A DNA stretch of 64,000 bases from Nanobdellota archaeon (GTDB taxonomy: Archaea > Nanobdellota > Nanobdellia > JAAOXT01): NCBI GenBank assembly GCA_018221045.1, contig JAAOXT010000017.1, positions 6,356-70,355 of the forward strand. Direction: 5' to 3'. The translations under genes were made by a program, and so were the position numbers. The stretch's first letter is position 1. Every line of letters starts with the position of its first letter. This document shows, one piece after another, positions 48,395 to 63,057 of this stretch. The notes under the pieces were generated by a model. The model was not told the origin of the DNA, made no database searches, and saw nothing but the letters and a program-made list of their open reading frames with translations.

Positions 48395-49051
48395 TTATTG
48401 TTTTTTTTTAGTTATTTCTAAACTTAAATTCTTAGCGAATTTTTGATTATGAAATGATTTAAGAACTGCGAAACCTTCGTTCTTCAACTGAGTCTTAAGT
48501 TCCTTAAGCGAAAATAAGTGATAATACCTCTTATAAACCTTTCCTTCGTGCTTCCAGCCCACGTAAAACACTTTTTTCCCAGGATATTCTGAAAAACGGG
48601 GTTGCTCAGGGTTCCAAGCCATCACCAGGCTTCTAGACTTTTTTTTCAGCACTCGCTTAACCTCTTTCCAAGGTGGTTTCTTGAAATGGTTCATCACTGA
48701 AATCATTAAAGCTCCTTTGAAAGAATCGTTTTTGAACGGCAGTGCCTGAAGGTCCGCGACTATCACCAAGTCATGTTTTTGTTTGGCCAATAAGGCCATT
48801 TGCTTTGAGAAGTCAATTGCAACGAACTTGTATTTTTTGAGTGCTGGAAAGTTTCTTCCGCTACCGCAACCCAAATCAATGAACCATTGTTTGGTCCTGA
48901 ACGTTTTAACGAATTCCTTGACTTCTGGCAAGGGGTTGGTTCTAAAAACGTTCCAAGCACTCGCTATAGCGTCGTAAACAGGTCTAAGGTCTTGCATGTG
49001 AACACTTTTTTGACATTGATTTGTTATAAAATCTTTCATTATAACAAACAT
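48395..49051 (-). CDS. class I SAM-dependent methyltransferase
   Basis: SAM-binding motif I 'FIDLGCGSGRN' and motif II 'DLVIVADLQ' are present. Confidence 0.7.
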   Translation of the reverse strand: MFVIMKDFITNQCQKSVHMQDLRPVYDAIASAWNVFRTNPLPEVKEFVKTFRTKQWFIDLGCGSGRNFPALKKYKFVAIDFSKQMALLAKQKHDLVIVADLQALPFKNDSFKGALMISVMNHFKKPPWKEVKRVLKKKSRSLVMAWNPEQPRFSEYPGKKVFYVGWKHEGKVYKRYYHLFSLKELKTQLKNEGFAVLKSFHNQKFAKNLSLEITKKKQ

Positions 49052-49081
49052 TTTTTAATCATGTGTCTCTTGGTTAAGCTC

Positions 49082-51550
49082 ATGAGGTTTTACGCTGATT
49101 TTCACTTGCACTCCAAGTACAGTCGGGCCTGCTCTCATGTCATGGACATTCCTCATCTCGTAAAGTACGGGAAGATGAAGGGATTGAACCTTTACGGAAC
49201 TGGTGACTTCACGCACCCGCAATGGTTTGAGCATTTGAAGGAAACACTGCAAGGCGGGGAAAACGGCATTTACGAAAGGGATGGCGTTAAGTTCGTGGTT
49301 AGCGGAGAAATCTCGCTCATTTACTCCCAAGGAGGTAAGGTTAGAAAAAATCATTTGCTAGTCATTCTTCCCTCGCTTGGCGCGGCAAGCCAAGTTAGGG
49401 ACATGCTCGGAAAAATAGGGAATTTGAAAGCTGATGGCCGACCGATTCTCGGCATGAACTCAATAGACTTCACTGAGAAAATCATTGAACTCGTGCCTGA
49501 CGCCATGATAGTGCCGGCACACTGTCTACCTGACTCGGAAAACATACTTACTGATATAGGTGTTCAATCAATAAAAAAAATAAGTAAAGGAAATAAAGTA
49601 CTATCTCACTCAGGGAGATTTCGTAAAGTTATTGACGTGTTTAAGAGAAAATATACAGGAAAATTAAAACACATAATCCCGTTCTATTTCACAATAGGCG
49701 TAAAGACTACTCCTGAACACCCTTTCTTAGCTATCAAGACTTATAAAAAATGTTCGTGGACGAAAGGCACCTGTAGAGAAAAGTGTTCTAAACTTAAAGA
49801 GTGCAAGAACAAATATTATTTAGAATACAAACCAGAATGGATCCCTTGCAAAGAATTAGAGGTTGGAGATGTCATTCTCTTTCCCAGAATTACGAAGATA
49901 AAGGATAAAAAAATAATTAAAATAAGTGATACCTCTCCAGGCATTGTAAAAAATGATAAAATAAGATTAGATAATTCAAATGCAAAATCAATAAATAATG
50001 TCATACGCGTTGATACTGATTTCTGTAGGTTTATCGGGTATTTCTTAGCAGAAGGCTCTATAATGAAAGACGGCATTTCATTAACGTTTAGTGCTAAAGA
50101 AAAAGAATACATCAAAGACGTTGAATTATTAATAAAGAAAATTTTCGGGATTGAAATAAATAAAAAACGAATTAAAGGAAATAGTTGTGAAATAATTATT
50201 TTCTCTAAAGTTTTAAAAAAATTTTTACACAAATTACTTTACAAAAATGGGCAAAAATCACCTAATAAAAGTTTACCTCATGAATTAATCCTTTTACCCT
50301 ATAATAAAATAAAACAAATTTTTCTCGGCTGGTGGCGGGGCGATAAAGGATATACCTCCTCAAGGGAACTAGCTAATGCTATGAAACTTATCTGCCTAAA
50401 ATTAGGTATAATACCTTCCATTAGAATTGACACAGCAGAAGCTCACACGAAAAGAGGCAATCACTTGTTTGAAGGAAGAATTATTGAAGCAAAACAGGAT
50501 TCACTGTATTTTAGTAACCTTTCTTTTCACGAAGAGTCACTAGATTTATTAGAAGAACCAATATTCCAAAAATTCAAAACAAAAAGAAACACGCGACACG
50601 GTTGGGTTGACACTAATCATGTTTACTTGCCAATACTTAAGATACAAGACGAAGATTTCAATGGATTTGTCTACAACCTAGAAGTGGAAAAAGATAACTC
50701 TTATTGTAGCGAATTTGCTTGTGTTCATAACTGCTGGACGCCATGGTTTAGCATGTTCGGGAGCATGAGCGGGTTTGACTCCATGAAAGATTGTTTTCAG
50801 GACCAGTTGAAGCACGTTTTCGCCGTGGAGACCGGGTTAAGCTCGGACCCTGCGATGAACTGGCGAGTCAAACAACTCGACAACATGACGTTACTCTCAA
50901 ATTCGGATGCTCATAGTCCTTGGCCTCACCGGGTTGGCAGGGAAGCCAACGTTTTCGATTTCAAAGACTTGACTTATCAATCGTTATACAACGCTATTAA
51001 GCGCAAAGACCGTGAAAAGTTTTTGTTCACTATCGAGACAGACCCTGCTTACGGCAAGTATCATTGGGACGGGCACAGAGGTTGCGGCGTGTCAATGCCC
51101 CCCGCCGAGTCTAAGAAGTTGAATAAGATTTGCCCGAAGTGTCATTCCAGATTAACTATCGGGGTGGAGCATAGGGTTGAAGAGTTGGCGGACCGTCCGG
51201 AGGGCTTCAAGCTTGAAGGAGCAATTCCTTTCAGAAATTTACTGCCTTTGGCGGAAATCATTTCCAAAGCGATAGGTAAAGGCGTGGGCACGAAAACTGT
51301 TTGGAGTGCTTACGAGAAAGCTGTTCGCGAACTAGGAGTGGAGTACGGGATACTGTTAGATGTTCCGGAGAATGAGTTGTCTAAGGTTTTGGGTGATGAT
51401 GTGGCAAAAGCGGTTTTGATGGTTCGCGAGAACAAAGTTCAAATCAAGCCGGGTTTTGATGGGGTTTATGGGGAAGCTGATTTCGGACAAAAACACGAGA
51501 AAACTGTTCCTTCAAAACCCGTGCAGAAAGGGTTAAACACCTGGCTCTAA
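49082..51550 (+). CDS. PHP-domain nuclease (EndoQ-like, TIGR00375-type) interrupted by an intein. The exteins are 49082-49522 and 50732-51550.
   Basis: The extein start 'MRFYADFHLHSKYSRACS' is the PHP metal-binding motif. The C-terminal 'KICPKCHSRL' is a zinc ribbon. The exteins total about 420 aa, matching EndoQ-type proteins. The track ORF begins further upstream, but the ATG at 49082 (or 49061) is the plausible start. Confidence 0.65.
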   Translation: MRFYADFHLHSKYSRACSHVMDIPHLVKYGKMKGLNLYGTGDFTHPQWFEHLKETLQGGENGIYERDGVKFVVSGEISLIYSQGGKVRKNHLLVILPSLGAASQVRDMLGKIGNLKADGRPILGMNSIDFTEKIIELVPDAMIVPAHCLPDSENILTDIGVQSIKKISKGNKVLSHSGRFRKVIDVFKRKYTGKLKHIIPFYFTIGVKTTPEHPFLAIKTYKKCSWTKGTCREKCSKLKECKNKYYLEYKPEWIPCKELEVGDVILFPRITKIKDKKIIKISDTSPGIVKNDKIRLDNSNAKSINNVIRVDTDFCRFIGYFLAEGSIMKDGISLTFSAKEKEYIKDVELLIKKIFGIEINKKRIKGNSCEIIIFSKVLKKFLHKLLYKNGQKSPNKSLPHELILLPYNKIKQIFLGWWRGDKGYTSSRELANAMKLICLKLGIIPSIRIDTAEAHTKRGNHLFEGRIIEAKQDSLYFSNLSFHEESLDLLEEPIFQKFKTKRNTRHGWVDTNHVYLPILKIQDEDFNGFVYNLEVEKDNSYCSEFACVHNCWTPWFSMFGSMSGFDSMKDCFQDQLKHVFAVETGLSSDPAMNWRVKQLDNMTLLSNSDAHSPWPHRVGREANVFDFKDLTYQSLYNAIKRKDREKFLFTIETDPAYGKYHWDGHRGCGVSMPPAESKKLNKICPKCHSRLTIGVEHRVEELADRPEGFKLEGAIPFRNLLPLAEIISKAIGKGVGTKTVWSAYEKAVRELGVEYGILLDVPENELSKVLGDDVAKAVLMVRENKVQIKPGFDGVYGEADFGQKHEKTVPSKPVQKGLNTWL
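49523..50731 (+). mobile_element. intein (403 aa) with a LAGLIDADG homing endonuclease domain
   Basis: It starts 'CLPDSENI' (block A). 'TPEHPF' is block B. The LAGLIDADG motifs are 'FIGYFLAEGS' and 'LGWWRGDKGY'. It ends 'FACVHN', followed by extein 'CWTPWF' (block G His-Asn plus a +1 Cys). GC is about 30%, versus about 45% in the flanking exteins. Confidence 0.85.
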
Positions 51551-52806
51551 AAAAATTTTTTCAATGTTTGGTCGAGTTCTTGCAGTGCTTCCTCTCCCTT
51601 AACGTTCAAATCGTGTTTCAGGCATTGGGTTAACGGGATTCCGAGTTCTTCGCACGCTTTTTTGAGGGCTTGCCAGCTCTCGCTCTTAGGCTTGAAATAA
51701 CCGAAAACTTTTTCGTACTTGTGAGCTGAAAGATAGTTTTTCACTCTTTGTTTGATTACTTTGATGTACGATTTCTTGACCGCTGGCGTTTCTTCTTTTT
51801 CAGGCCAGTCGTAAGAATTGAAAGGGTAATGGTCAGCGAACTCCTCAGGTACCACGCCAGGATTTGAAATAGCGATTAAGTGTAAGTCCCTATACTTGCG
51901 AGTAACTCGCTTGATTGCCCTCCAGGTTCGGGAATGCGTGTAAGGCTTTTTGTAAGCGCACGGAACGAACAACGCGTAAGTTTTTGGTGGCTCGTACAAG
52001 CGCACGAGATAGTCTTGCCATACTTTAAAGTGCGGGTGCAACAACTGTTTTTTTGTAGCTCCAACAATTTTTTGCTTGGCTGGCTCGGGGAATCGGGGTT
52101 TAAAATCAAAATTCGAGAAATCCGTTTGAATTTTTTTGTTTTTAGTGAATGGTTTGACCAACTCTTCGAATTCTCTCTTGTTGAGGGGTTTCCACTCCCC
52201 TTTAAGCCATAATTCGTTAATTGGGGCGTTGGCGTGCGGAAAAGTGTTTATGAGCACGATTTCGTCGGCGTGTTTGTCAGCAAATTCCACGCTTTTTTTC
52301 AGGCTTTTTTCAACGTTTTTGGCGAATGGAGGGTTGACCAAGATGTAAACCTTAACTCCTGCACCCCACTTCCTGAGAACGCGCGCTGCGCGCAAAAAGT
52401 CCTTGTTCGTGAAACCTTTAGCTAATCTCTTTCTAAGCGCGTCATCACTGGTTTCCAAACCCGTGGCTACAGTGAGTTTCAGGCCTTTGAACAAATCCAG
52501 TTTTTCCTTGGTTATGAATTCTGGTCGGGACTCAACAGTAATTTTCTTCACTCCTTTCTCCTTAACCAGTTTCACCAAGTACTTGAGAATCTTATCAGAG
52601 AACTGTTTCTCATCTAGGACTGAGCCTGAAGCAAATATTTTGACGTGCTTGCACGGCGTGTTCAGCGCTTTGTCTAAAGCGTTCTTGACGCCGTGAATGT
52701 CTACTTTTGATTCTAGTCTTCCCCAACCGCAGAAAACGCATTTTCCCCAGGAGCATTTGCCTGATGAGAGAATTAACGTTTTTTCACTCGTGTTTTTTGA
52801 CTTCAT
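51547..52806 (-). CDS. archaeal TIGR01210-like putative radical-SAM-related protein (RaSEA-like)
   Basis: The N-terminal cysteine cluster 'SGKCSWGKCVFCGWG' (Cx4Cx2C) is followed by TIM-barrel-like and C-terminal regions. It resembles archaeosine-pathway partner proteins, but the assignment is tentative. Confidence 0.4.
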   Translation of the reverse strand: MKSKNTSEKTLILSSGKCSWGKCVFCGWGRLESKVDIHGVKNALDKALNTPCKHVKIFASGSVLDEKQFSDKILKYLVKLVKEKGVKKITVESRPEFITKEKLDLFKGLKLTVATGLETSDDALRKRLAKGFTNKDFLRAARVLRKWGAGVKVYILVNPPFAKNVEKSLKKSVEFADKHADEIVLINTFPHANAPINELWLKGEWKPLNKREFEELVKPFTKNKKIQTDFSNFDFKPRFPEPAKQKIVGATKKQLLHPHFKVWQDYLVRLYEPPKTYALFVPCAYKKPYTHSRTWRAIKRVTRKYRDLHLIAISNPGVVPEEFADHYPFNSYDWPEKEETPAVKKSYIKVIKQRVKNYLSAHKYEKVFGYFKPKSESWQALKKACEELGIPLTQCLKHDLNVKGEEALQELDQTLKKFF

Positions 52807-53062
52807 TCAACAGGTCTTCTTTTTGCGTGACACCTATAAATCTTTTGACTTCTTCACCGTCTTTGAAAACAATTATGGTGGGAATGCTTTTCACGCCCAT
52901 CTTTATCGCTTCTTGTGATTCGTCAACGTTCACTTTTCTGACTTTAGCTTCGCTTCCCAACTCTTTATCTAACTCGTCCATTATTGGTCCCTGAATTTTG
53001 CAAGGAGGGCACCAGTCAGCGTAGTAATCAACAATTTCTATCATAATATCACCTCCAAACAT
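52784..53062 (-). CDS. trxA: thioredoxin
   Basis: The active site is 'WCPPCK'. The protein is about 85-92 aa. Confidence 0.85.
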   Translation of the reverse strand: MFGGDIMIEIVDYYADWCPPCKIQGPIMDELDKELGSEAKVRKVNVDESQEAIKMGVKSIPTIIVFKDGEEVKRFIGVTQKEDLLNEVKKHE

Positions 53063-53346
53063 TTTTTCAAAAGTTTTTGTGATTCTTTTTTAACAACTTT
53101 TTCGAGTTCTTTAGATTTTTTTGAGCAGTAAACGTAATACCTTCCTTTTTTCTGGTCGCAGCACTCGCTCCTCCTATCAACTAAACCTTTTCTGACAAGA
53201 TTGTTCAAACTTTTTTGTATAACGCTTCTATCCTTGCCTTTTTTTTTGGCTATCTTATTCGCTGTCGTGCACATCCCTTTTTTTATGGCGAACAATACTT
53301 CGACGTCGGTCTTATTCAGTTCCATTAATCTTCTGATTTCGTTCAT
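53041..53346 (-). CDS. winged-HTH transcriptional regulator (TrmB/MarR-like)
   Basis: 101 aa. 'TTANKIAKKKGKDRSVIQKSLNNLVRKGLV' forms an HTH recognition helix plus wing. Confidence 0.6.
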   Translation of the reverse strand: MNEIRRLMELNKTDVEVLFAIKKGMCTTANKIAKKKGKDRSVIQKSLNNLVRKGLVDRRSECCDQKKGRYYVYCSKKSKELEKVVKKESQKLLKKCLEVIL

Positions 53347-54440
53347 TTCTTCAACCTTTGCTTCGCGATTTCGAGAGCCGCGTCTCTTGAGTACTCTCCT
53401 TCCTTTACTCTAGTGAAGACTTCTCTTGTATTGTTCACGATTTTTTCCTTGACTGTTTTGAACATTTGTTCTTCGTCGCCTCCAATGTATTCAATGTATG
53501 AGGATATGACTCCTCCTGCGTTAGCGAGAAAGTCGGGTACAACGTGAATTCCTTTATCCTGTAATTTTTTCTCAATTTCTGGATGTATCGGTATGTTCGC
53601 TGCTTCCACTACAAGCTTGGCCTTAACGGTTTCCCAGTTTCTTTCATGGATGACGTTAGGTCGCGCTCCTGGAATCAAGATATCGACGTCAAGTTCGAAC
53701 AATTCCTTGTTACACCTTATTTCTGCGGGGTAATCTGTAACGGTTCCCTTCTCTTTTTTGACGTGGATTAACTCTTTCACGTCCAAACCTTCTGGATCGT
53801 AAACCATTCCTTTGGAATCAGATACAGCAACTATCTTCGCCCCTTTTTTTGATAAGAATTGGGCTGTGAAGGTTCCAACGTTTCCAAAACCTTCAATCGC
53901 AACGCTCGCCCCTTCCAACTGGATTCCCAAGACCTTGCAAGCTTCTTCAGTGGCTTCAGCCACTCCAAAACCGGTTGAGCCTAGCTCGTGGGGCAGTCCC
54001 CCCATGCTTGATGGTTTGCCAGTGCAAGCTTTAGGGTCTTTCAACTCGTCCGCGTAAGCAGCCATCTCCCGCTCCGTGGTGTTCATGTCTGGGCCTGCAA
54101 CGTACTCTCCTGTTAAGTTCTTGAGTCGTCGAGCGAATGCGCGCAACAGCTTGTCCTTGTCAGCTGTCTTGCTCGCTTTTATCCCTGCCTTTGCCCCGCC
54201 GAACGGGATGTTTGCGAGAGCGTTCTTCCAAGTCATGGCTCTAGCCAGGCCGAAAACCTCTTTAACACTTATATCAGGAACTAACCGGATTCCTCCTTTG
54301 CCTGGCCCGCGTGAAGTATTATCAATCACTAATACTCCTTCCAAACCAGCTTTGTAGTCTGTGACATAAACAATTTTTTCCGGACCAATCTCATCCATAA
54401 AACCTTCAAACTCTTTCATGATTGTGCATGAAACTTGCAC
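53343..54440 (-). CDS. Glu/Leu/Phe/Val dehydrogenase family (short, Leu/Val-DH-like)
   Basis: 'GGAKAGIK' is the catalytic Lys motif, and the Rossmann motif 'GFGNVG' is present. The length of 365 aa fits leucine/valine dehydrogenases. Confidence 0.75.
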   Translation of the reverse strand: MQVSCTIMKEFEGFMDEIGPEKIVYVTDYKAGLEGVLVIDNTSRGPGKGGIRLVPDISVKEVFGLARAMTWKNALANIPFGGAKAGIKASKTADKDKLLRAFARRLKNLTGEYVAGPDMNTTEREMAAYADELKDPKACTGKPSSMGGLPHELGSTGFGVAEATEEACKVLGIQLEGASVAIEGFGNVGTFTAQFLSKKGAKIVAVSDSKGMVYDPEGLDVKELIHVKKEKGTVTDYPAEIRCNKELFELDVDILIPGARPNVIHERNWETVKAKLVVEAANIPIHPEIEKKLQDKGIHVVPDFLANAGGVISSYIEYIGGDEEQMFKTVKEKIVNNTREVFTRVKEGEYSRDAALEIAKQRLKK

Positions 54441-57274: not shown

Positions 57275-58453
57275 TTAACAGCAGTAGAGTTCTTCTGGTT
57301 TGCCTGGCTTGTTGCCGAAAGGGTTTCCTGTTCTGCGAATGTTCTGTATCATTTTCTTGTTCTTCGGGCTCTCAAGCATTGACCTTTTTTTTCTAATGAT
57401 TTTGAGTGCGTCAATCCTGACAGGACAGTTCTCTTTGCAAGCAAGGCAGGCCGTGCACGAGTACAGTTTCTTCCAATTTGTTTCTAATGCGAGCCCTTTT
57501 GGCCCGATATAATGGTTTCCAAAACCCGATAGTAATTGCTGGTAAGCCGGGCAATAATATAGGCAGGAACCGCAGCCCAAGCAAAGAAGTGCTTCGCTCA
57601 AACCTTTTTTTATCAAGTCTCGTCTCCCATTATCTAAGATTATTATGTGAACTTCTCTCGCTCCCTGCATCCCTGTCACCAATTTTTTCTGGACGTCAGC
57701 GGTCTTGCTCGGACCAGATATCACGTTCACGTAAGAAGCCATTCTTGACCCTGTTCCATAAATGGACAGCGCTTTCATGGTTTTCATGGCCTCCTCATTG
57801 CTCTCAACTATTTTGTCCAGGCTCGTGATTATCACATGTTTTTCAGGTATGCGGGACACGAGACCTATGTTACCTTCATTCTCCAGTATGAACACGCTTC
57901 CTTCACTCGTGACCGCGTTGGCCCCTGTTAACCCGACATCTGCTTCGAAGATTCTTGGACGGATTTGCTCGCGAACCCATTTCACGATGGCTTCAGGGGT
58001 GGCCTGAACTTCATCTTTTGTCTTCTCTTTTATTTTCTTCAATATTCGCTCAACACTTATAGCTATGGCTGGCGTGACAGGGTGTTCGGGTTCTTCATCG
58101 CACAGGCCGACTAAGTAGTCCCCGCAATCAGTTTCAATGACTTTGTTCTTTATTTTTTTTAGAAGTCCTGATTCCTTGATAACGTTGGACTTGCTCTTCG
58201 CAATCCTATCAGAAGGTTTCACTATTTTTTTGAATTGTTTTACGAGTTGAGCGGGTGTTCTAGCATGGTAAACTTGGAACCCGCTGGACTCCAAGTTTTT
58301 GACAGCTTTTTTCCACAATTGTTCAAGGTTTTTTATCGCGTTCTCCCTTATTGCTCGGAGTTCGTCCCGAAAAATTTCTTGGTCTATACCTTTCAACGCT
58401 TTTTTCTTGTTGGAAGCGTAAACTTTTTTGGCTGTTACGAGTTCTGGAATCAT
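57275..58453 (-). CDS. LutB-like Fe-S protein (LUD domain plus two 4Fe-4S ferredoxin motifs)
   Basis: 'GLTGANAVTSEGSVFILENEGN' is the LUD/DUF162 motif. 'CLGCGSCLYYCP' and 'CTACLACKENCP' are two CxxCxxCxxxCP clusters. Confidence 0.7.
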   Translation of the reverse strand: MIPELVTAKKVYASNKKKALKGIDQEIFRDELRAIRENAIKNLEQLWKKAVKNLESSGFQVYHARTPAQLVKQFKKIVKPSDRIAKSKSNVIKESGLLKKIKNKVIETDCGDYLVGLCDEEPEHPVTPAIAISVERILKKIKEKTKDEVQATPEAIVKWVREQIRPRIFEADVGLTGANAVTSEGSVFILENEGNIGLVSRIPEKHVIITSLDKIVESNEEAMKTMKALSIYGTGSRMASYVNVISGPSKTADVQKKLVTGMQGAREVHIIILDNGRRDLIKKGLSEALLCLGCGSCLYYCPAYQQLLSGFGNHYIGPKGLALETNWKKLYSCTACLACKENCPVRIDALKIIRKKRSMLESPKNKKMIQNIRRTGNPFGNKPGKPEELYCC

Positions 58454-59157
58454 TTGATTACCTCTATCAGTGCTTGACTGAATTCTTTCACTTTAACGGA
58501 AGGGTTATCAAGTCTTGCAGTGCATAACGGGCAAGTCGTGACAAGCATTTTGGCACGAGTTTTCTTAGCTTGTTTTAATCTTTCTTCGCTCATCTTGTCA
58601 CCCAGTTTTTTTCTGTTCGACGCGACTCCTGCTCCTCCACCACAGCATAGGGACTGGGCGTGGTGGTCTTGCATTTCGATTATGGTGTAACCCATTTTTT
58701 TAAGAATTGTTCTTGGGTCCTCGTAGAGTTGCGCGTACCTGCCGAGGTGGCAGGGGTCGTGATAAGTTACCCTGCCAGAAACTTTTTTGAGTTTCAGCTT
58801 ACCTTTCTTTATTGCTTTAAGCACAATAGTTGTTATGTACTCAACTTTCACGCCACGTTTTGGGAAGTGTTTCTCGTATTCTTTGAGCATGCCGTAGCAG
58901 GCCGGGCAGTTGGTGATTACTTTTTTGATTGAATAATCTTCGAATGTTTTAAGGTTTTTTTCAGCTAGTTTAAGGAAGTCTTTTTCGTAACCTGCGTTGA
59001 GTGGTGGGGACCCGCAACAAAATTGTTGTTCAAGCATGATGAAGTCGATTCCAGATTTCTCTAGAATTTTTTTGTAGTTATCTTCTATTTCAGGATAAAC
59101 TTTTTTGGTCAGGCATCCAGGAAAATACAGTGTGTTGCCTTTGAAAAGTTTGAACAT
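58450..59157 (-). CDS. LutA/HdrD-like protein with two cysteine-rich CCG domains
   Basis: 'QFCCGSPP' and 'SLCCGGGAG', together with 'CPACYG' and 'TTCPLCTARL', form two CCG-domain patterns. It overlaps LutB-like by 4 nt and the CcdA stop/start by 1 nt. Confidence 0.7.
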   Translation of the reverse strand: MFKLFKGNTLYFPGCLTKKVYPEIEDNYKKILEKSGIDFIMLEQQFCCGSPPLNAGYEKDFLKLAEKNLKTFEDYSIKKVITNCPACYGMLKEYEKHFPKRGVKVEYITTIVLKAIKKGKLKLKKVSGRVTYHDPCHLGRYAQLYEDPRTILKKMGYTIIEMQDHHAQSLCCGGGAGVASNRKKLGDKMSEERLKQAKKTRAKMLVTTCPLCTARLDNPSVKVKEFSQALIEVIK

Positions 59158-59158
59158 T

Positions 59159-60211
59159 TTAGAACCACCCTAATAGCATTCCTATTCCGAGGATTATCAT
59201 GAATGCTCCGAGAAGGAGTTTCATCCAGTTTCGTTTGCCCATCCTCCACTTCTCAAGTTTTTTCGTGCTCACTCCTACGTAAGCGAGCGCCATTATTATG
59301 AAGAGAGGTAAAACGAATATGATATTGTAGAGCATTAAATAAGGTATTGCCATGAAACCTGACCTTGCGAGCAAGCTTAAAATCGCGAGGTACACTCCTC
59401 CAGTGCATGGTAGCTCAAACATGGCTACGAGAAATCCCAAAACTATTGCTGCAGGCACGGTCGCTTTTCTTGAGAATTTAGAGATTATTCCTTTTCTGGA
59501 TTCAGGTATTTTGAGGCTTATTCCTTTCCCGTAGAAGAAGAAATCCTTCACGTTTATTATGCCGAAGATTATGGCTATCCAGGCCGCCACGTTATAAATA
59601 ATGAAGGTTAGCGAAGTTATTTTTTGTATGACCGTGAAGATCCCAATACCTGCGAGCAAGTACGTTATGAACACTGTTATAATGTAAACCGAACCTATCT
59701 TAATTATCTTTCTTCTGGAACCCAGAGAAATTATTGTTGAGAGAAGGAATATCATTACTGCGAAAGCGCATGGGTTTATGGAATCAATTATTGCTGCCGT
59801 GATGATTACGAAGAAAGTTAGCTCTTTTTGAGAGCTTGTGGTCCCGCCTTCTCCTCTTGACTGAATCATTCCTGACTGAATGCATTTTTCCACTTGTTCT
59901 GACAAGTTATTAATTATTATTCCTGGCCCCTGCAAATAACCTCTTTCCCCGTTACAGGTTATGATTATTAGCGGAACGCCATCATTGATTCCGAACTCGT
60001 CTAAAACGTTCAAATACTTCAAAGTATTAGTCTGGTTTCTTGATATTTCAAGTTCTGTCAAGTTGGGAATGTTGTTAAGGATTTGGGATGTTTGAACGTA
60101 AGCGCAACCATGGCATCCTAGCAAATGATAGAATTCTATGCTGACCATGTTATCCGCCAAGACTGGCGTGAAAACTAGTAAAAACGTTATTAGTGTTAAT
60201 TGTTTTCTCAT
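59159..60211 (-). CDS. CcdA/DsbD-family membrane thiol-disulfide transporter fused to an N-terminal extracytoplasmic CxxC thioredoxin-like domain
   Basis: A signal peptide is followed by 'FYHLLGCHGCAYV' (CxxC). A six-TM core then carries the two conserved Cys motifs 'INPCAF' and 'ELPCTGG'. Confidence 0.65.
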   Translation of the reverse strand: MRKQLTLITFLLVFTPVLADNMVSIEFYHLLGCHGCAYVQTSQILNNIPNLTELEISRNQTNTLKYLNVLDEFGINDGVPLIIITCNGERGYLQGPGIIINNLSEQVEKCIQSGMIQSRGEGGTTSSQKELTFFVIITAAIIDSINPCAFAVMIFLLSTIISLGSRRKIIKIGSVYIITVFITYLLAGIGIFTVIQKITSLTFIIYNVAAWIAIIFGIINVKDFFFYGKGISLKIPESRKGIISKFSRKATVPAAIVLGFLVAMFELPCTGGVYLAILSLLARSGFMAIPYLMLYNIIFVLPLFIIMALAYVGVSTKKLEKWRMGKRNWMKLLLGAFMIILGIGMLLGWF

Positions 60212-60381
60212 TAAGTATTTCCTTTGGCGTGAAACAATATTTAAATATTTGTTTCAGATATTGAAACTAAGAGTTTTATGAAGGAAGGACTGTTATTGAT
60301 GACGGTTATCACTGGCCTTGTTTTCTGATAAGAAGAAGAAAACAAAAGATCTGAATCTTTTGTTCTCAGTTTTGTCAGGGG

Positions 60382-60582
60382 ATGAAGAAAAACTGGCTAA
60401 AATCTTGGCAGAATAATGGAGGGGTTTTGAAGCAGTCCGAGCTGGTCAGGGTTTCTGGTTTGAGCGGGGTGAAGGTTAGCAGACTGGTTGATAAGATGAG
60501 TAAGAAAATTGTTGATAAGGAAACAAAAGGAAAGATTAACATAATAAAATTAAAAGAAGTTTTTCAAAAAAATTTAGTTTAG
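60382..60582 (+). CDS. small putative wHTH protein
   Basis: 66 aa. 'SELVRVSGLSGVKVSRLVDKM' is HTH-like. Confidence 0.3.
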   Translation: MKKNWLKSWQNNGGVLKQSELVRVSGLSGVKVSRLVDKMSKKIVDKETKGKINIIKLKEVFQKNLV

Positions 60583-61395: not shown

Positions 61396-63057
61396 ATGAT
61401 ACTCCTCGAATTGAAAGCCCGGGACGCTGGTGGCAGGATTTGCAAAGCCATAATAAATGGTAAAGAATTGGAGACTCCTGCGTTCTTACCCGTTATTAAC
61501 CCGAGAATTGACACGATTCCCGTTAAAGAATTGAAGGAGTTGGGCGTTCAAGCCTTGATAACTAATGCTTATTTCTTGTTGAAAAATCATGAGGACGAAC
61601 TGAAAAAGGGGGTTCACGACTTCTTAGGTTTTGACGGTGTAGTAATGCTGGACAGCGGAGCTTTCCAATTGATGCGTTACGGCAGCGTGAACGTCACGAA
61701 CCGTAAAATCATTGAGTTCCAGAAGAAGATTAAGCCAGACATTGGAGTAATCCTTGATGTGCCGGTAGCAAAACCTTCTCGAGAGGATTTCGAGCACGGG
61801 GTTAAAGAAACTTTAAAGCGCGCCAAGGAATGGAAAAAATTGGGTAAAGGAAGCGTTAACTGGGCTGGACCAGTGCATGGAGGTCCTTATGAAGACTTGT
61901 TGAAAAAAAGTGCTGTGCAAATGAGCAAGCTCGGCTTCGACATGTATTGTGTGGGCTCGCTCGTCCCAGCCATGGAAGAATATGATTTCAAGAGGATGGT
62001 TGACCAAGTTATAACCGCTAAAAAGAATTTGCCGTCCAACGTTCTGGTCCACGCTTTCGGCGCCGGACACCCCATGGTAATGCCCTTACTCGCCCTGCTC
62101 GGAATCGACTTGTTTGATTCCGCGAGTTACGCCATATTCGCCAAGGAAAATAGGTACATAACTGAAAGAGGAACTATTAAACTGAAGGATTTGCGAGAAT
62201 TTCCCTGCAACTGCCCTTCCTGCTTCAACAAGAAGCCTGAAGACTTAAAAGAGCCGGGTTTAGCGAGGCATAACTTGTATGTTATCTTGGCGGAGGTTCG
62301 CAGGATTAAACAAGCAATCCACACTGGAAGGTTGTGGGAACTCGTGCTGGAAAGAGCCATGGTTCACCCTGCTTTGCTGGAAGCCACCAAGCATGTCTTG
62401 GAAAATCATTACGAATACTTTTTGGATAAGGACCCTTTGACCAAGCGAAAAGCTTTCTTTTACGCTGGAGAGGTTTCGAGCTACAGGCCAGCCATCGTCA
62501 GAGCTAGCCAAAAATTTCCTGGCCAAGTGCCTTCAGCTTTAAGGATTGTTTATCCTTTCGGCCAGTTTGAAGGAGAACAAGTGTTCGATTTTGATGACGA
62601 GTTGTACACCGAACTGGAAACTTTGCGTTTAATAGGGGATTATTGGTTCGGCAAAAGTGCAGGAAAAAAATTGTTTCCCAAAAAGTGTTGGATAAAGTAC
62701 ACTCGAACTGGCAGGATTCACCAAGTCTTTCTAAATGAAGATTTGTTAGGAGTGCTTAGGACGAGTGACGGGTACTTCGCTCTGCACAGGGCGGGCGCGT
62801 TGAGGTTGAAGACTAAATTGAAGAAAGTTGTTGTCAAAAAAGACGCAGAATCCTTCGTGCTGGAGGGCAGGAACGCGTTGGCTAGGTTCGTGAAAAAAGT
62901 TGGTAAAGGGGTTTTGCCAGGGGATAGCGTGCTGGTCACGAATTCTCGCGGCAAATTTTTGGGGGTGGGTGAAGCCCTGCTTAACAGCGAGGAAATGCTG
63001 GAATTCAACTACGGGAACGCTGTCAAAGTCAGGGAAGGTTTTGAGAAACCTGTGTGA
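61396..63057 (+). CDS. tRNA-guanine transglycosylase family protein with a C-terminal PUA domain (archaeosine pathway, TgtA/ArcS-like)
   Basis: A TGT TIM barrel is present, with the zinc site 'CNCPSCF...H'. The C-terminal PUA-like region is 'GDSVLVTNSRGKFLGVGEAL'. The protein is 553 aa. Confidence 0.7.
   Translation: MILLELKARDAGGRICKAIINGKELETPAFLPVINPRIDTIPVKELKELGVQALITNAYFLLKNHEDELKKGVHDFLGFDGVVMLDSGAFQLMRYGSVNVTNRKIIEFQKKIKPDIGVILDVPVAKPSREDFEHGVKETLKRAKEWKKLGKGSVNWAGPVHGGPYEDLLKKSAVQMSKLGFDMYCVGSLVPAMEEYDFKRMVDQVITAKKNLPSNVLVHAFGAGHPMVMPLLALLGIDLFDSASYAIFAKENRYITERGTIKLKDLREFPCNCPSCFNKKPEDLKEPGLARHNLYVILAEVRRIKQAIHTGRLWELVLERAMVHPALLEATKHVLENHYEYFLDKDPLTKRKAFFYAGEVSSYRPAIVRASQKFPGQVPSALRIVYPFGQFEGEQVFDFDDELYTELETLRLIGDYWFGKSAGKKLFPKKCWIKYTRTGRIHQVFLNEDLLGVLRTSDGYFALHRAGALRLKTKLKKVVVKKDAESFVLEGRNALARFVKKVGKGVLPGDSVLVTNSRGKFLGVGEALLNSEEMLEFNYGNAVKVREGFEKPV

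Follow-up and report, generated by a model that had tools for sequence, protein, structure and literature searches.

A thioredoxin-fused CcdA-like transporter is linked to an HdrB-like CCG protein and lactate-type dehydrogenase genes in DPANN archaea and some CPR bacteria

Three genes lie in tandem on the minus strand of the window, by which we mean the whole stretch of 64,000 nucleotides analysed here. They code for a CcdA-like membrane protein fused to a thioredoxin (Trx)-fold domain (gene 1), a two-CCG iron-sulfur protein (gene 2) and a LutB-like protein (gene 3). A promoter-like element and the remnant of a regulator gene are found next to them. The features are as follows.

59159..60211, minus strand: gene 1, fusion of a Trx-fold domain and a CcdA/DsbD-superfamily six-TM domain (ORF of 350 aa)
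60155..60211, minus strand: signal peptide or N-terminal anchor helix of gene 1, aa 1-19, MRKQLTLITFLLVFTPVLA (residues 5-25 hydrophobic)
59873..60151, minus strand: Trx/Grx-fold domain of gene 1, aa 21-113, predicted extracytoplasmic (AF2, Foldseek, family profile)
59162..59821, minus strand: six-TM CcdA-like domain of gene 1, aa 131-350 (six helices at 133-346 in AF2)
58450..59157, minus strand: gene 2, cytoplasmic two-CCG Fe-S protein, HdrB/LutA-like (ORF of 235 aa; Pfam CCG twice)
57275..58453, minus strand: gene 3, LutB-like, LUD plus 2x[4Fe-4S] (ORF of 392 aa; Pfam LUD_dom and Fer4_8)
57635-58312, minus strand: LUD domain of gene 3, aa 48-273 (Pfam LUD_dom, 2e-42)
57413-57592, minus strand: HdrC-like 2x[4Fe-4S] ferredoxin domain of gene 3, aa 288-347 (Fer4_8 dicluster, 3e-9)
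60238..60245, minus strand: TATA-box-like TTTAAATA, about 30 nt upstream of the gene-1 ATG (read from the sequence)
60278..60582, plus strand: degraded remnant (pseudogene) of a membrane-anchored CxC/wHTH regulator (DUF7343, MarR-like; tblastn)

The initial annotation had described three co-directional, tightly packed minus-strand genes, and we find the ORFs exactly where it placed them. It had also claimed overlaps at both junctions. Reading the sequence directly, we find that this is true of the CCG/LutB-like junction, where the ATG (58453-58451) and the TGA (58452-58450) form an ATGA overlap, but not of the CcdA/CCG junction, where a 1-nt spacer separates the stop from the start codon (TAA-A-ATG). 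The spacing is also tight in relatives, with a 10-nt overlap in locus L001 and a 6-nt gap in L002. The TATA-box-like element is a putative archaeal promoter, from which the operon transcript would be leaderless or carry a very short leader; this is inference only.

Searching with the gene-1 protein itself, we obtained no Pfam or NCBIfam match, even at E<=10. The protein has 2117 homologs, with the JGI name 'CcdA/glutaredoxin', and 30 family members matched the Pfam families SfLAP (25/30), Trx (15/30), DsbD_TM (8/30, best 7e-7), Grx (8/30) and DSBA (5/30). SfLAP is a sister family of DsbD_TM (PF02683, LysE clan). The AF2 model (pLDDT 81.7) shows a signal/anchor helix, a Trx-fold domain and six TM helices. 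The N-terminal helix (model residues 2-20) has a low pLDDT and is present in all 30 aligned homologs. In the model, the Trx domain follows the order b-a-b-a-b-b-a (E23-29, H34-41, E51-55, H60-73, E81-86, E89-94, H96-113), with the active site C33-H-G-C36 at the start of helix 1 and P80 in the cis-Pro position just before strand 3. Foldseek matched this domain to thioredoxins (probability 1.00, TMt 0.55-0.64), and the family profile matched Trx, DsbA and Grx chains in the PDB. The active site is CHGC in the window and CPHC or CSHC in most relatives. The domain also carries a second, clade-specific Cys pair (C86/C110).

The two membrane cysteines are C148 in TM1 (DSINPC148AF) and C269 in TM4 (ELPC269TGG). 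Both surrounding motifs, N146-P147-C148 and L267-P268-C269-T-G-G, are invariant in 30 homologs and align with the PC motifs of Thermus CcdA; together with C33, C36 and P80, the two cysteines are invariant across the family alignment. Using a TM-only profile, we found Thermus CcdA (5VKV) as the top PDB match, with the PC motifs aligned and a weak E-value of 0.1. This weak similarity of the membrane domain to a characterised CcdA counts against the electron relay proposed below. By the positive-inside rule, the K/R-rich loops 1-2, 3-4 and 5-6 mark the cytoplasmic side, and the N- and C-termini of the six-TM core are predicted outside the cell (AF2 helices and K/R loops). The Trx domain is also predicted outside because it is acidic and lies behind a signal peptide, and the positive-inside rule agrees. 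The proposal that gene 1 is a CcdA/DsbD-type six-TM protein with two TM cysteines is borne out by the AF2 helices and the invariant C148/C269, and its exported N-terminal Trx-like CHGC domain by the fold (AF2 and Foldseek) and the predicted topology.

Gene 1 shares with the CcdA/DsbD/ScsB systems (CcdA-ResA, CcdA-Etrx) the six-TM core, Pro-Cys in TM1 and TM4 and the N-out orientation, as well as delivery to an extracytoplasmic Trx-fold CxxC domain, which is fused as in DsbD and ScsB. It differs in its highly divergent membrane domain without a direct Pfam match, and in its fused domain, which is N-terminal, minimal, Grx-like and usually CxHC. Its genetic partner also differs, being an HdrB-like CCG Fe-S protein plus a dehydrogenase, and a use in cytochrome c maturation is not expected in these hosts. 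To our knowledge, all characterised CcdA/DsbD members are thought to be reduced by cytoplasmic thioredoxin.

The gene-2 protein matches Pfam CCG twice (E 6e-42), and both CX31-34CCX35-36CXXC motifs are complete (C15, C47, C48, C84, C87 and C136, C171, C172, C209, C212), with all ten cysteines invariant in 28 orthologs. A profile of it recovers HdrB chains (E~1e-21) and the 9OJN CCG module (3e-39), and its NCBIfam matches all fall under their equivalog cut-offs. The assignment as a two-CCG-domain protein is thus well supported by the paired Pfam matches, the complete motifs and the HdrB homology. Cysteines of CCG motifs ligate noncubane [4Fe-4S] clusters in HdrB/HdrD-type reductases, and disulfide reduction at the gene-2 cluster site is inferred by analogy.

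Gene 3 has the Pfam architecture expected of a LutB-like LUD plus 2x[4Fe-4S] protein, but it scores below the LutB equivalog threshold (TIGR00273 LutB/LldF, 233.6 bits against a cut-off of 444.8) and also below that of LdhH (249.6 against 800). In the PDB it matches a LUD protein (2G40, 1e-4) and, over its C-terminal part, HdrC chains (6e-4 to 3e-3). LdhH and TIGR00273 are the best NCBIfam matches for the Lut-like pair; LdhH is a LutB-LutA fusion, known from the Desulfovibrio LdhH/LdhL quinone-dependent L-LDH. As in LutABC/LldEFG and Desulfovibrio LdhH/LdhL, a LutA-like 2xCCG gene and a LutB-like gene lie side by side. Unlike in LutABC, the CCG gene precedes LutB, CcdA is in the operon, the LutB-like gene can be swapped for GlcD-like plus Fer4 genes, the scores stay under equivalog cut-offs, and a LutC/LdhL-type LUD-only subunit is missing from the window and the related loci. 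With filters off, the 64-kb window gave no second LUD (LutC-like) ORF, the best other match having E 0.11, and related loci yielded no LutC-type LUD-only gene at E<=1e-3. The reported absence of LutC is therefore confirmed within the window only. The initial annotation had further doubted a role in lactate utilisation for want of LutC. This doubt is not upheld, as about half of the relatives carry a GlcD-type FAD 2-hydroxyacid oxidase plus a ferredoxin instead; that the LutB-like gene can be replaced in this way points to oxidation of lactate or another 2-hydroxyacid as the electron source.

The regulator remnant is transcribed divergently from the operon. Using the L001 and L002 proteins as tblastn queries, we recovered three pieces, each in a frame of its own: residues 1-16, 62-96 and 84-150. 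What is deleted is the TM/CxC segment, about residues 17-61. Intact homologs (Pfam DUF7343, 4e-12) adjoin CcdA in 13 of 58 linked loci. A recurrent regulator of this kind is consistent with thiol-redox control of the module, and the membrane-anchored CxC/wHTH protein is a candidate extracytoplasmic thiol-redox sensor. The window also has a cytoplasmic thioredoxin gene (52784-53062) 6 kb from the operon, so the canonical electron donor of CcdA may exist. The window ORFs that we scanned, not exhaustively, include no TrxR.

We checked whether the linkage recurs by sampling 80 GTDB species-representative loci of the CcdA family, comprising 51 DPANN/CPR-type and 29 Methanomicrobiales/Methanomassiliicoccales loci (by record titles). 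An orthologous CCG gene lies on the same strand in 25 of the 51 DPANN/CPR-type loci (24 with E-values between 1e-81 and 1e-104; the gene in L044 is partial), and within about 200 nt downstream of CcdA in 17 of these 25. The other DPANN/CPR-type loci, about half, have no CCG nearby, and several of them have short flanks; none of the 29 methanogen loci carries the ortholog. Searching from the CCG side, we considered 47 metagenomic loci with an ortholog-level CCG; 29 of them contain a CcdA gene, which is adjacent in 25. Flanks were too short to judge in 16 of the 18 loci without CcdA, and in the other two (L102 and L122) CcdA is absent despite about 8 kb of flank on both sides. Distant GlcF-type Fer4+CCG fusions of the classical kind adjoin GlcD, not CcdA: CcdA was adjacent in none of 33 such loci and lay further off in one.

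The gene order is permuted among the loci, and yet CcdA remains within the operon, usually touching CCG. The orders are CcdA-CCG-LutB (the window, L001, L002, L012, L016 and others), LutB-CcdA-CCG (L010, L014, L090, L096 and others), CcdA-CCG-FAD-Fer4 (L009, L030, L121 and others), FAD-Fer4-CcdA-CCG (L015) and CCG-FAD-Fer4-CcdA (L067, L103, L110). The dehydrogenase front end is thus either LutB-like or a GlcD-like FAD oxidase with a small ferredoxin, on the same CCG plus CcdA back end. In this respect about half of the related loci resemble GlcDEF and Dld-II, with FAD_binding_4/FAD-oxidase_C, a small 2x[4Fe-4S] protein and CCG beside CcdA; they differ from GlcDEF in having three separate genes and a CCG of the CcdA-linked subfamily, and the window itself is the LUD variant. 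We argue that two unrelated 2-hydroxyacid dehydrogenase front ends on one back end mark the latter as an electron-accepting unit. CCG beside CcdA in many independent DPANN/CPR species, in both search directions, is best explained by the three genes forming one conserved module, which is widespread in DPANN archaea and also present in some CPR bacteria. The gene identities, the predicted topology and the reciprocal linkage, conserved independently of gene order, are what the analysis shows.

From these observations we propose, with a probability of roughly 55%, a relay from 2-hydroxyacid oxidation through Fe-S clusters and the CCG site to the CcdA cysteines and on to the outside Trx domain. Every electron-transfer step in it, the direction of flow and the substrates are inferred. 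A relay from an Fe-S/CCG reductase via CcdA to the fused Trx domain had been suggested in the initial annotation, and those of its proposed checks that we ran (fold and location of the Trx domain, recurrence of the CCG-CcdA adjacency) all favoured it. The cytoplasmic front end, a LUD domain here and a GlcD-type FAD oxidase in many relatives, would oxidise lactate or a related 2-hydroxyacid. The two [4Fe-4S] clusters of the HdrC-like domain would then pass the electrons to the HdrB-like two-CCG protein, whose cluster site may reduce a disulfide, by analogy with HdrB, HdrD and DsrK. Its substrate would be the C148-C269 disulfide of the CcdA-like transporter, reached directly or via a small cytoplasmic dithiol carrier. 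CcdA would carry these electrons through the membrane to the Trx-fold domain with which it is fused, and this domain could reduce or isomerise extracellular disulfides. In such a relay CcdA would take over the part of the quinone pool in accepting electrons from a LutAB/GlcDF-type dehydrogenase; DPANN/CPR organisms usually lack quinones and respiratory chains. The chemistry is compatible with the relay, since the ten CCG cysteines, the CxxC, the cis-Pro and both TM cysteines are invariant, the CCG protein is homologous to HdrB, the ferredoxin domain resembles HdrC, and the Trx domain is predicted outside.

Among the closest known systems are HdrBC/HdrDE and DsrK of DsrMKJOP, which share the two-CCG protein with its ten cysteines, fed by an HdrC-like 2x[4Fe-4S] domain. 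In both HdrDE and DsrMK, a membrane partner carries the CCG subunit on its cytoplasmic side, and there this subunit reduces a disulfide or trisulfide. The module differs in that its membrane partner is a cysteine-based transporter and not a haem b/quinone-interacting subunit, its proposed substrate is a protein disulfide and not CoM-S-S-CoB or DsrC, and its input is a LUD or GlcD-type dehydrogenase and not HdrA, HdrE or DsrM. Lactate/pyruvate (E0' ~ -190 mV) is a weaker reductant than the NADPH/Trx system, so outward reduction needs a relatively oxidising CxxC or favourable substrate ratios. The CcdA cysteines are embedded in the membrane, and a protein disulfide at that site may or may not have the access to a noncubane cluster that a small heterodisulfide has. 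We know of no experiment or structure in which a CCG protein touches a CcdA/DsbD protein or exchanges electrons with it, and in the searchable literature we found no description of CcdA coupled to a CCG/dehydrogenase module.

The same linkage could have arisen without any redox coupling. Thioredoxin would then feed the CcdA fusion, and the LutAB/GlcDF-like enzyme would be an independent lactate dehydrogenase, with another acceptor or with CcdA as its anchor, under shared regulation such as an oxidative-stress/redox regulon. The Trx gene within the window fits such an arrangement, as do the CcdA fusions without a CCG neighbour in the 29 methanogen loci and several DPANN loci, and Trx genes adjoin CcdA in Methanosarcina (PMC6262447). 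Comparing CCG-linked with unlinked family members, we found no CcdA residues separating them and hence no sequence signature of a dedicated docking surface. However, with shared regulation as the only tie, two genes rarely stay in contact while the order of genes changes in at least five ways and the catalytic partner is exchanged, and in LutB-CcdA-CCG loci the transporter gene separates those of the two Fe-S subunits. Linkage is also specific to one CCG subfamily, being lacking in the GlcF-type relatives, and the loci encode no alternative acceptor (a quinone-binding or haem b subunit). We regard the absence of coupling as unlikely, though it keeps a real chance of being correct. Mere chance adjacency is a different matter. 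Compact DPANN genomes do pack unrelated genes tightly, and the close relatives L001 and L002 are broadly syntenic with the window and prove nothing on their own, but the association recurs in 25 GTDB species and 29 metagenomic loci with diverse flanks, orders and partners. As it does so in both search directions, we consider chance ruled out for practical purposes.

Electrons might instead flow inward. Outside the cell, the CxHC domain would then serve as the oxidant of secreted-protein cysteines in the manner of DsbA/PDI, CcdA would act as a quinone-independent analogue of DsbB/VKOR, and the CCG/Fe-S proteins would pass the electrons to a cytoplasmic acceptor, e.g. to pyruvate, giving lactate. 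CPHC, the commonest active site in the family, is the DsbA motif, and among the 24 linked GTDB loci that have a fused domain, 20 show His at the third position; the DSBA and DsbA-chain matches of the family point the same way, and DsbB/VKOR would be unworkable in hosts generally lacking quinones. VKOR-Trx fusions and DsbB/DsbA likewise pair a membrane redox protein with an outside Trx-fold domain having a DsbA-like CPHC/CxHC site, but VKOR and DsbB have a different membrane fold and a cofactor requirement (quinone), and they bear on this inward flow only. Against it, the window protein has CHGC and not CPHC, LutB-type and GlcD-type front ends are known as oxidising and NAD-independent (LutABC/LldEFG, GlcDEF, Dld-II), CCG sites of the HdrB, HdrD and DsrK type are known to reduce disulfides, and characterised CcdA/DsbD proteins all move electrons outward. 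We consider this reversal improbable.

If the outward relay from 2-hydroxyacids to the Trx domain operates, it may be taken further, to quinone-independent electron export, as 'disulfide respiration' or facilitated fermentation, in DPANN and CPR cells. Scavenged lactate or other 2-hydroxyacids would be converted to pyruvate and yield ATP via acetate, and the electrons would leave through the HdrBC-like module and CcdA to external disulfides, polysulfide or host surface proteins. Taken as a whole, this extension is speculative and rather doubtful. Were it true, the cysteine relay would be a conduit of energy metabolism and not a protein-maintenance device.

A conserved operon joining CcdA to an HdrB-like reductase and to a dehydrogenase of the lactate type would mean that, besides thioredoxin, CcdA has a second input, driven by a metabolite. 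With three small proteins and defined cysteines, the module lends itself to testing. It matters for the extracytoplasmic redox chemistry of episymbionts, that is, the upkeep or modification of their surface proteins and possibly of host proteins. It would also explain what becomes of the electrons from quinone-linked dehydrogenases of the LutAB/GlcDF type in ultra-small DPANN/CPR organisms, and it suggests an undescribed way for quinone-free cells to power chemistry outside the cell.

The three genes are minus-strand ORFs whose ends match the coordinates of the initial annotation exactly. Overlaps had been claimed at both junctions. Reading the sequence directly, we find an ATGA overlap between the CCG and LutB-like genes, whereas the gene 1/CCG junction is not an overlap but a one-base spacer (TAA-A-ATG). 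The module and the nearby elements are as follows.

60278-60582, plus strand: pseudogene remnant of a CxC/wHTH (DUF7343) regulator, with the TM/CxC segment deleted and the rest frameshifted
60238-60245: putative archaeal TATA box, TTTAAATA, about 30 nt upstream of the gene 1 ATG (sequence read directly)
59159-60211, minus strand: gene 1, ORF of 350 aa, CcdA fusion
58450-59157, minus strand: gene 2, ORF of 235 aa, CCG protein
57275-58453, minus strand: gene 3, ORF of 392 aa, LutB-like protein
52784-53062, minus strand: CPPC thioredoxin of 92 aa

We infer that the TTTAAATA element could act as an archaeal TATA box, giving the operon a leaderless transcript. The window is of DPANN archaeal origin. 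Archaeal housekeeping genes surround the module (aIF2-gamma, aIF5B, archaeosine TGT and aminoacyl-tRNA synthetases), and lower glycolysis to pyruvate is also encoded in the window (iPGM, enolase and PEP synthase/PPDK). A radical-SAM/DUF5591 fusion (51547-52806, minus strand) and an archaeosine-type tRNA-guanine transglycosylase with TGT, C2 and PUA domains (61396-63057, plus strand) flank the module, 9 kb apart; possibly both belong to archaeosine biosynthesis. An 887-aa ORF (48887-51550, plus strand) carries an intein splicing domain and a LAGLIDADG homing-endonuclease domain in an unidentified host protein. The small CPPC thioredoxin is one of three tightly packed or overlapping minus-strand genes (52784-54440), together with a TrmB-like wHTH protein (101 aa) and a glutamate dehydrogenase. 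It is the sole candidate for a classical CcdA donor seen in the window, and no TrxR was found among the larger window ORFs scanned, a scan that did not cover every ORF.

The gene 1 protein, whole or in halves, gave no relevant match to Pfam or NCBIfam even at E ≤ 10; thus, family-level evidence was needed. It matches a protein of a 'Nanoarchaeota archaeon' MAG at 100% identity and has 2117 database relatives, many of which JGI names 'cytochrome c biogenesis protein CcdA/glutaredoxin'. Scanning aligned relatives individually, we obtained matches to SfLAP (25/30), Thioredoxin (15/30), DsbD_TM (8/30, best 7e-7), Glutaredoxin (8/30) and DSBA (5/30). The family alignment shows an invariant CxxC at C33/C36 (CHGC in the window protein, CPHC in the consensus), an invariant P80 at the cis-Pro position, and invariant motifs in TM1 (D143-x-x-N-P-C148-A-F) and TM4 (E-L-P-C269-T-G-G). 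In the AlphaFold2 model (mean pLDDT 81.7), a hydrophobic helix at the N-terminus leads into a domain of beta-alpha-beta-alpha-beta-beta-alpha topology, which a disordered linker connects to six TM helices. Foldseek matched the soluble domain to many thioredoxins at a probability of 1.00, and the family profile matches Trx, DsbA and Grx chains. Searching 177,635 PDB sequences with a TM-only profile, we found Thermus CcdA (5VKV) at the top, with a weak E of 0.1 and the PC motifs aligned. By the positive-inside rule, loops 1-2, 3-4 and 5-6 (3, 8 and 6 Lys/Arg) are predicted to be cytoplasmic, and the Trx domain, which is acidic, to lie outside. Fold and topology predictions thus both support the earlier assignment of an exported Trx-like domain fused to a six-TM CcdA/DsbD-type protein. 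Gene 1 encodes a divergent CcdA/DsbD-superfamily protein with a fused exported Trx-fold domain; sequence statistics do not establish it as a canonical CcdA.

The Trx domain (59873-60151, minus strand) has a second Cys pair, C86/C110, with a 'C-NG' insertion. This pair, which may form a structural disulfide, is restricted to a subclade comprising the window protein and the aligned homologs P0002, P0003, P0011, P0012, P0037, P0090, P0112 and P0120; in clades without it, helix 3 is followed by a C-x-C-P or PICP motif instead. Two Methanomassiliicoccales loci (L045:7229-10699 and L074:7715-10699) have ORFs of about 1000-1150 aa whose C-terminal part matches the membrane domain of CcdA; the roughly 790-950 residues ahead of it are unidentified, and CxxC is absent from the 140 residues before TM1. 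At four metagenomic loci (L090, L093, L114 and L119), the Trx and membrane parts fall in different ORFs or frames that lie between LutB and CCG; these are either split genes or frameshifts.

Gene 2 encodes two complete CCG motifs (Pfam E 6e-42), and all ten CCG cysteines are invariant across 28 orthologs. In profile searches it matches HdrB, the noncubane-cluster subunit that reduces the disulfide, at E ~1e-21, and the CCG module of 9OJN, a 1042-aa membrane 'iron-sulfur-binding reductase', at 3e-39. In the gene 3 protein, a LUD domain (2e-42) precedes a two-cluster ferredoxin domain resembling HdrC. The best matches of both genes are the models for fused Desulfovibrio-type LdhH and for LutB/LldF, at scores far under the curated cut-offs, so by sequence we class them as LutA/LutB-like rather than as equivalogs. 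In line with the initial report of a missing LutC, a second LUD ORF was undetectable in the 64-kb window by HMMER with all filters off, and we found no LutC-like LUD ORF in any related locus examined.

Is the adjacency of the three genes accidental? Two closely related loci, L001 and L002 (76% and 62% identity), keep the CcdA-CCG-LutB trio, but their flanks are syntenic with the window too, and alone they therefore prove little. In a more distant lineage (L003 and L005, ~45% identity), the CcdA fusion again has a CCG gene downstream, but the genes after CCG encode a GlcD-type FAD oxidase and a small 2x[4Fe-4S] protein in place of LutB. Several GlcD-type loci (L003:7139-7954, L005:7152-8084, also L013, L073 and L079) carry between CcdA and CCG an unannotated gene of 270-310 aa without a Pfam match.

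Using the family alignment, we fetched 80 loci of GTDB species representatives and searched the six-frame ORFs of each locus for matches to profiles derived from the window and L001-L005. A same-strand ortholog of the window CCG protein was present in 25/80 (24 at E 1e-81 to 1e-104; L044 partial), starting no more than about 200 nt downstream of CcdA in 17 of these 25. Grouped by record titles, linkage occurred in 25/51 DPANN/CPR-type loci (Woese-, Pace-, Aenigmat- and Nanoarchaeia, Patescibacteria and a few probably mis-binned labels) and in 0/29 Methanomicrobiales/Methanomassiliicoccales loci. The partner was LutB-like in 14 linked loci, GlcD-like with Fer4 in 10, and neither in L027. Five gene orders were seen (CcdA-CCG-LutB, LutB-CcdA-CCG, CcdA-CCG-FAD-Fer4, FAD-Fer4-CcdA-CCG and CCG-FAD-Fer4-CcdA); CcdA lies inside the cluster in all five and touches CCG in most. 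The fetched loci contained no natural CcdA-CCG fusion ORF, the only dual-domain ORFs being Fer4+CCG (GlcF-type) and FAD+Fer4 fusions.

Performing the reciprocal survey from the CCG ortholog alignment (80 metagenomic loci), we find a CcdA-family gene in 29/47 loci with an ortholog-level CCG protein (CCG-only, ~235-250 aa), adjacent in 25. In the remaining 18, flanking sequence on both sides was sufficient to exclude CcdA only twice (L102 and L122). The other 33 loci had more distant CCG matches, mostly GlcF-type Fer4+CCG fusions (~390 aa) beside GlcD; CcdA occurred in one and was adjacent in none. The linkage thus holds for this CCG subfamily specifically, in both search directions and whatever the gene order or front end, which refutes chance adjacency. 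In comparative genomics, such a pattern is the standard mark of a functional unit, and we are confident that the three genes form one functional module.

A membrane-anchored protein adjoins CcdA in 13/58 linked loci (L012:869-1390, L089:6245-6724, L019:9374-9916, L024:9333-9845, L014:4672-5163 and eight others). In this family of ~150 aa, two TM helices flank a conserved CxC (e.g. ACGCKLPPW, VCSCTLPIP) and the C-terminus is a DUF7343/MarR-type wHTH. It is a candidate thiol-redox-sensing regulator, possibly with extracytoplasmic sensing, and appears to be uncharacterised; its only informative Pfam match is DUF7343, of unknown function. The regulator is intact and divergent from CcdA in L001 and L002, where a 129-aa gene missing from the window lies between HIT and the regulator. 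In the window's remnant, residues 1-16, 62-96 and 84-150 fall in three different frames.

An HdrC-like relay with an HdrB-like CCG protein is the disulfide-reducing module of HdrABC, HdrDE and DsrMK; this module is also part of LutABC, GlcDEF and Dld-II, where it is believed to pass electrons to the membrane quinone pool. To our knowledge, quinones are generally absent from DPANN and CPR organisms. These operons encode one membrane protein only, an electron transporter that works through cysteines. In the proposed relay, a 2-hydroxyacid would be oxidised at the LUD or FAD front end, and electrons would pass via the [4Fe-4S] relay to the CCG site, then to the C148/C269 pair of CcdA, the outside CxxC domain and finally external disulfides. 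This outward relay is the most economical reading, to which we give a probability of roughly 0.55. It is inferred, without contact or electron-transfer data. The missing LutC had been taken to make a lactate-type role doubtful; against this, two unrelated, physiologically oxidative 2-hydroxyacid dehydrogenases share the back end, which also favours outward flow. His occupies position 3 of the CxxC (CxHC) in 20/24 linked GTDB loci with a fused domain, and we infer that CxHC would fit a relatively oxidising acceptor suited to the modest reducing power of lactate.

The same CxHC motif, with the DsbA-like profile matches, keeps alive the reverse flow, in which the module would be a quinone-independent DsbA/DsbB analogue. 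Co-regulated genes without redox coupling cannot be excluded either, although such an arrangement accounts poorly for the order-independent contiguity. For cytochrome c maturation, the only argument against a role is that, as far as we know, DPANN archaea usually lack c-type cytochromes. For the outward relay, we sought a docking signature, and no residues were kept in CCG-linked and rare in unlinked CcdA proteins. The sequences thus give no sign of a dedicated docking surface, and the CCG-CcdA transfer may go through a small dithiol carrier, e.g. a thioredoxin such as that at 52784-53062.

Known precedents include Methanosarcina Trx genes that lie beside CcdA, as well as Fe-S ferredoxin:disulfide reductases that reduce thioredoxins (both PMC6262447), and DsbD clusters with flavinylated partners (PMC8238504). 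Linkage of CcdA/DsbD to CCG, HdrD, LutB or lactate modules was undescribed in the searchable full-text literature, and we found no account of CcdA-CCG linkage in DPANN genomics papers or in a survey of extracytosolic electron-transfer gene clusters. Since most subscription journals lay outside the search, the novelty of the linkage is probable rather than certain. The proposed relay is of the CcdA/DsbD type; its new part would be the metabolite-driven Fe-S input.
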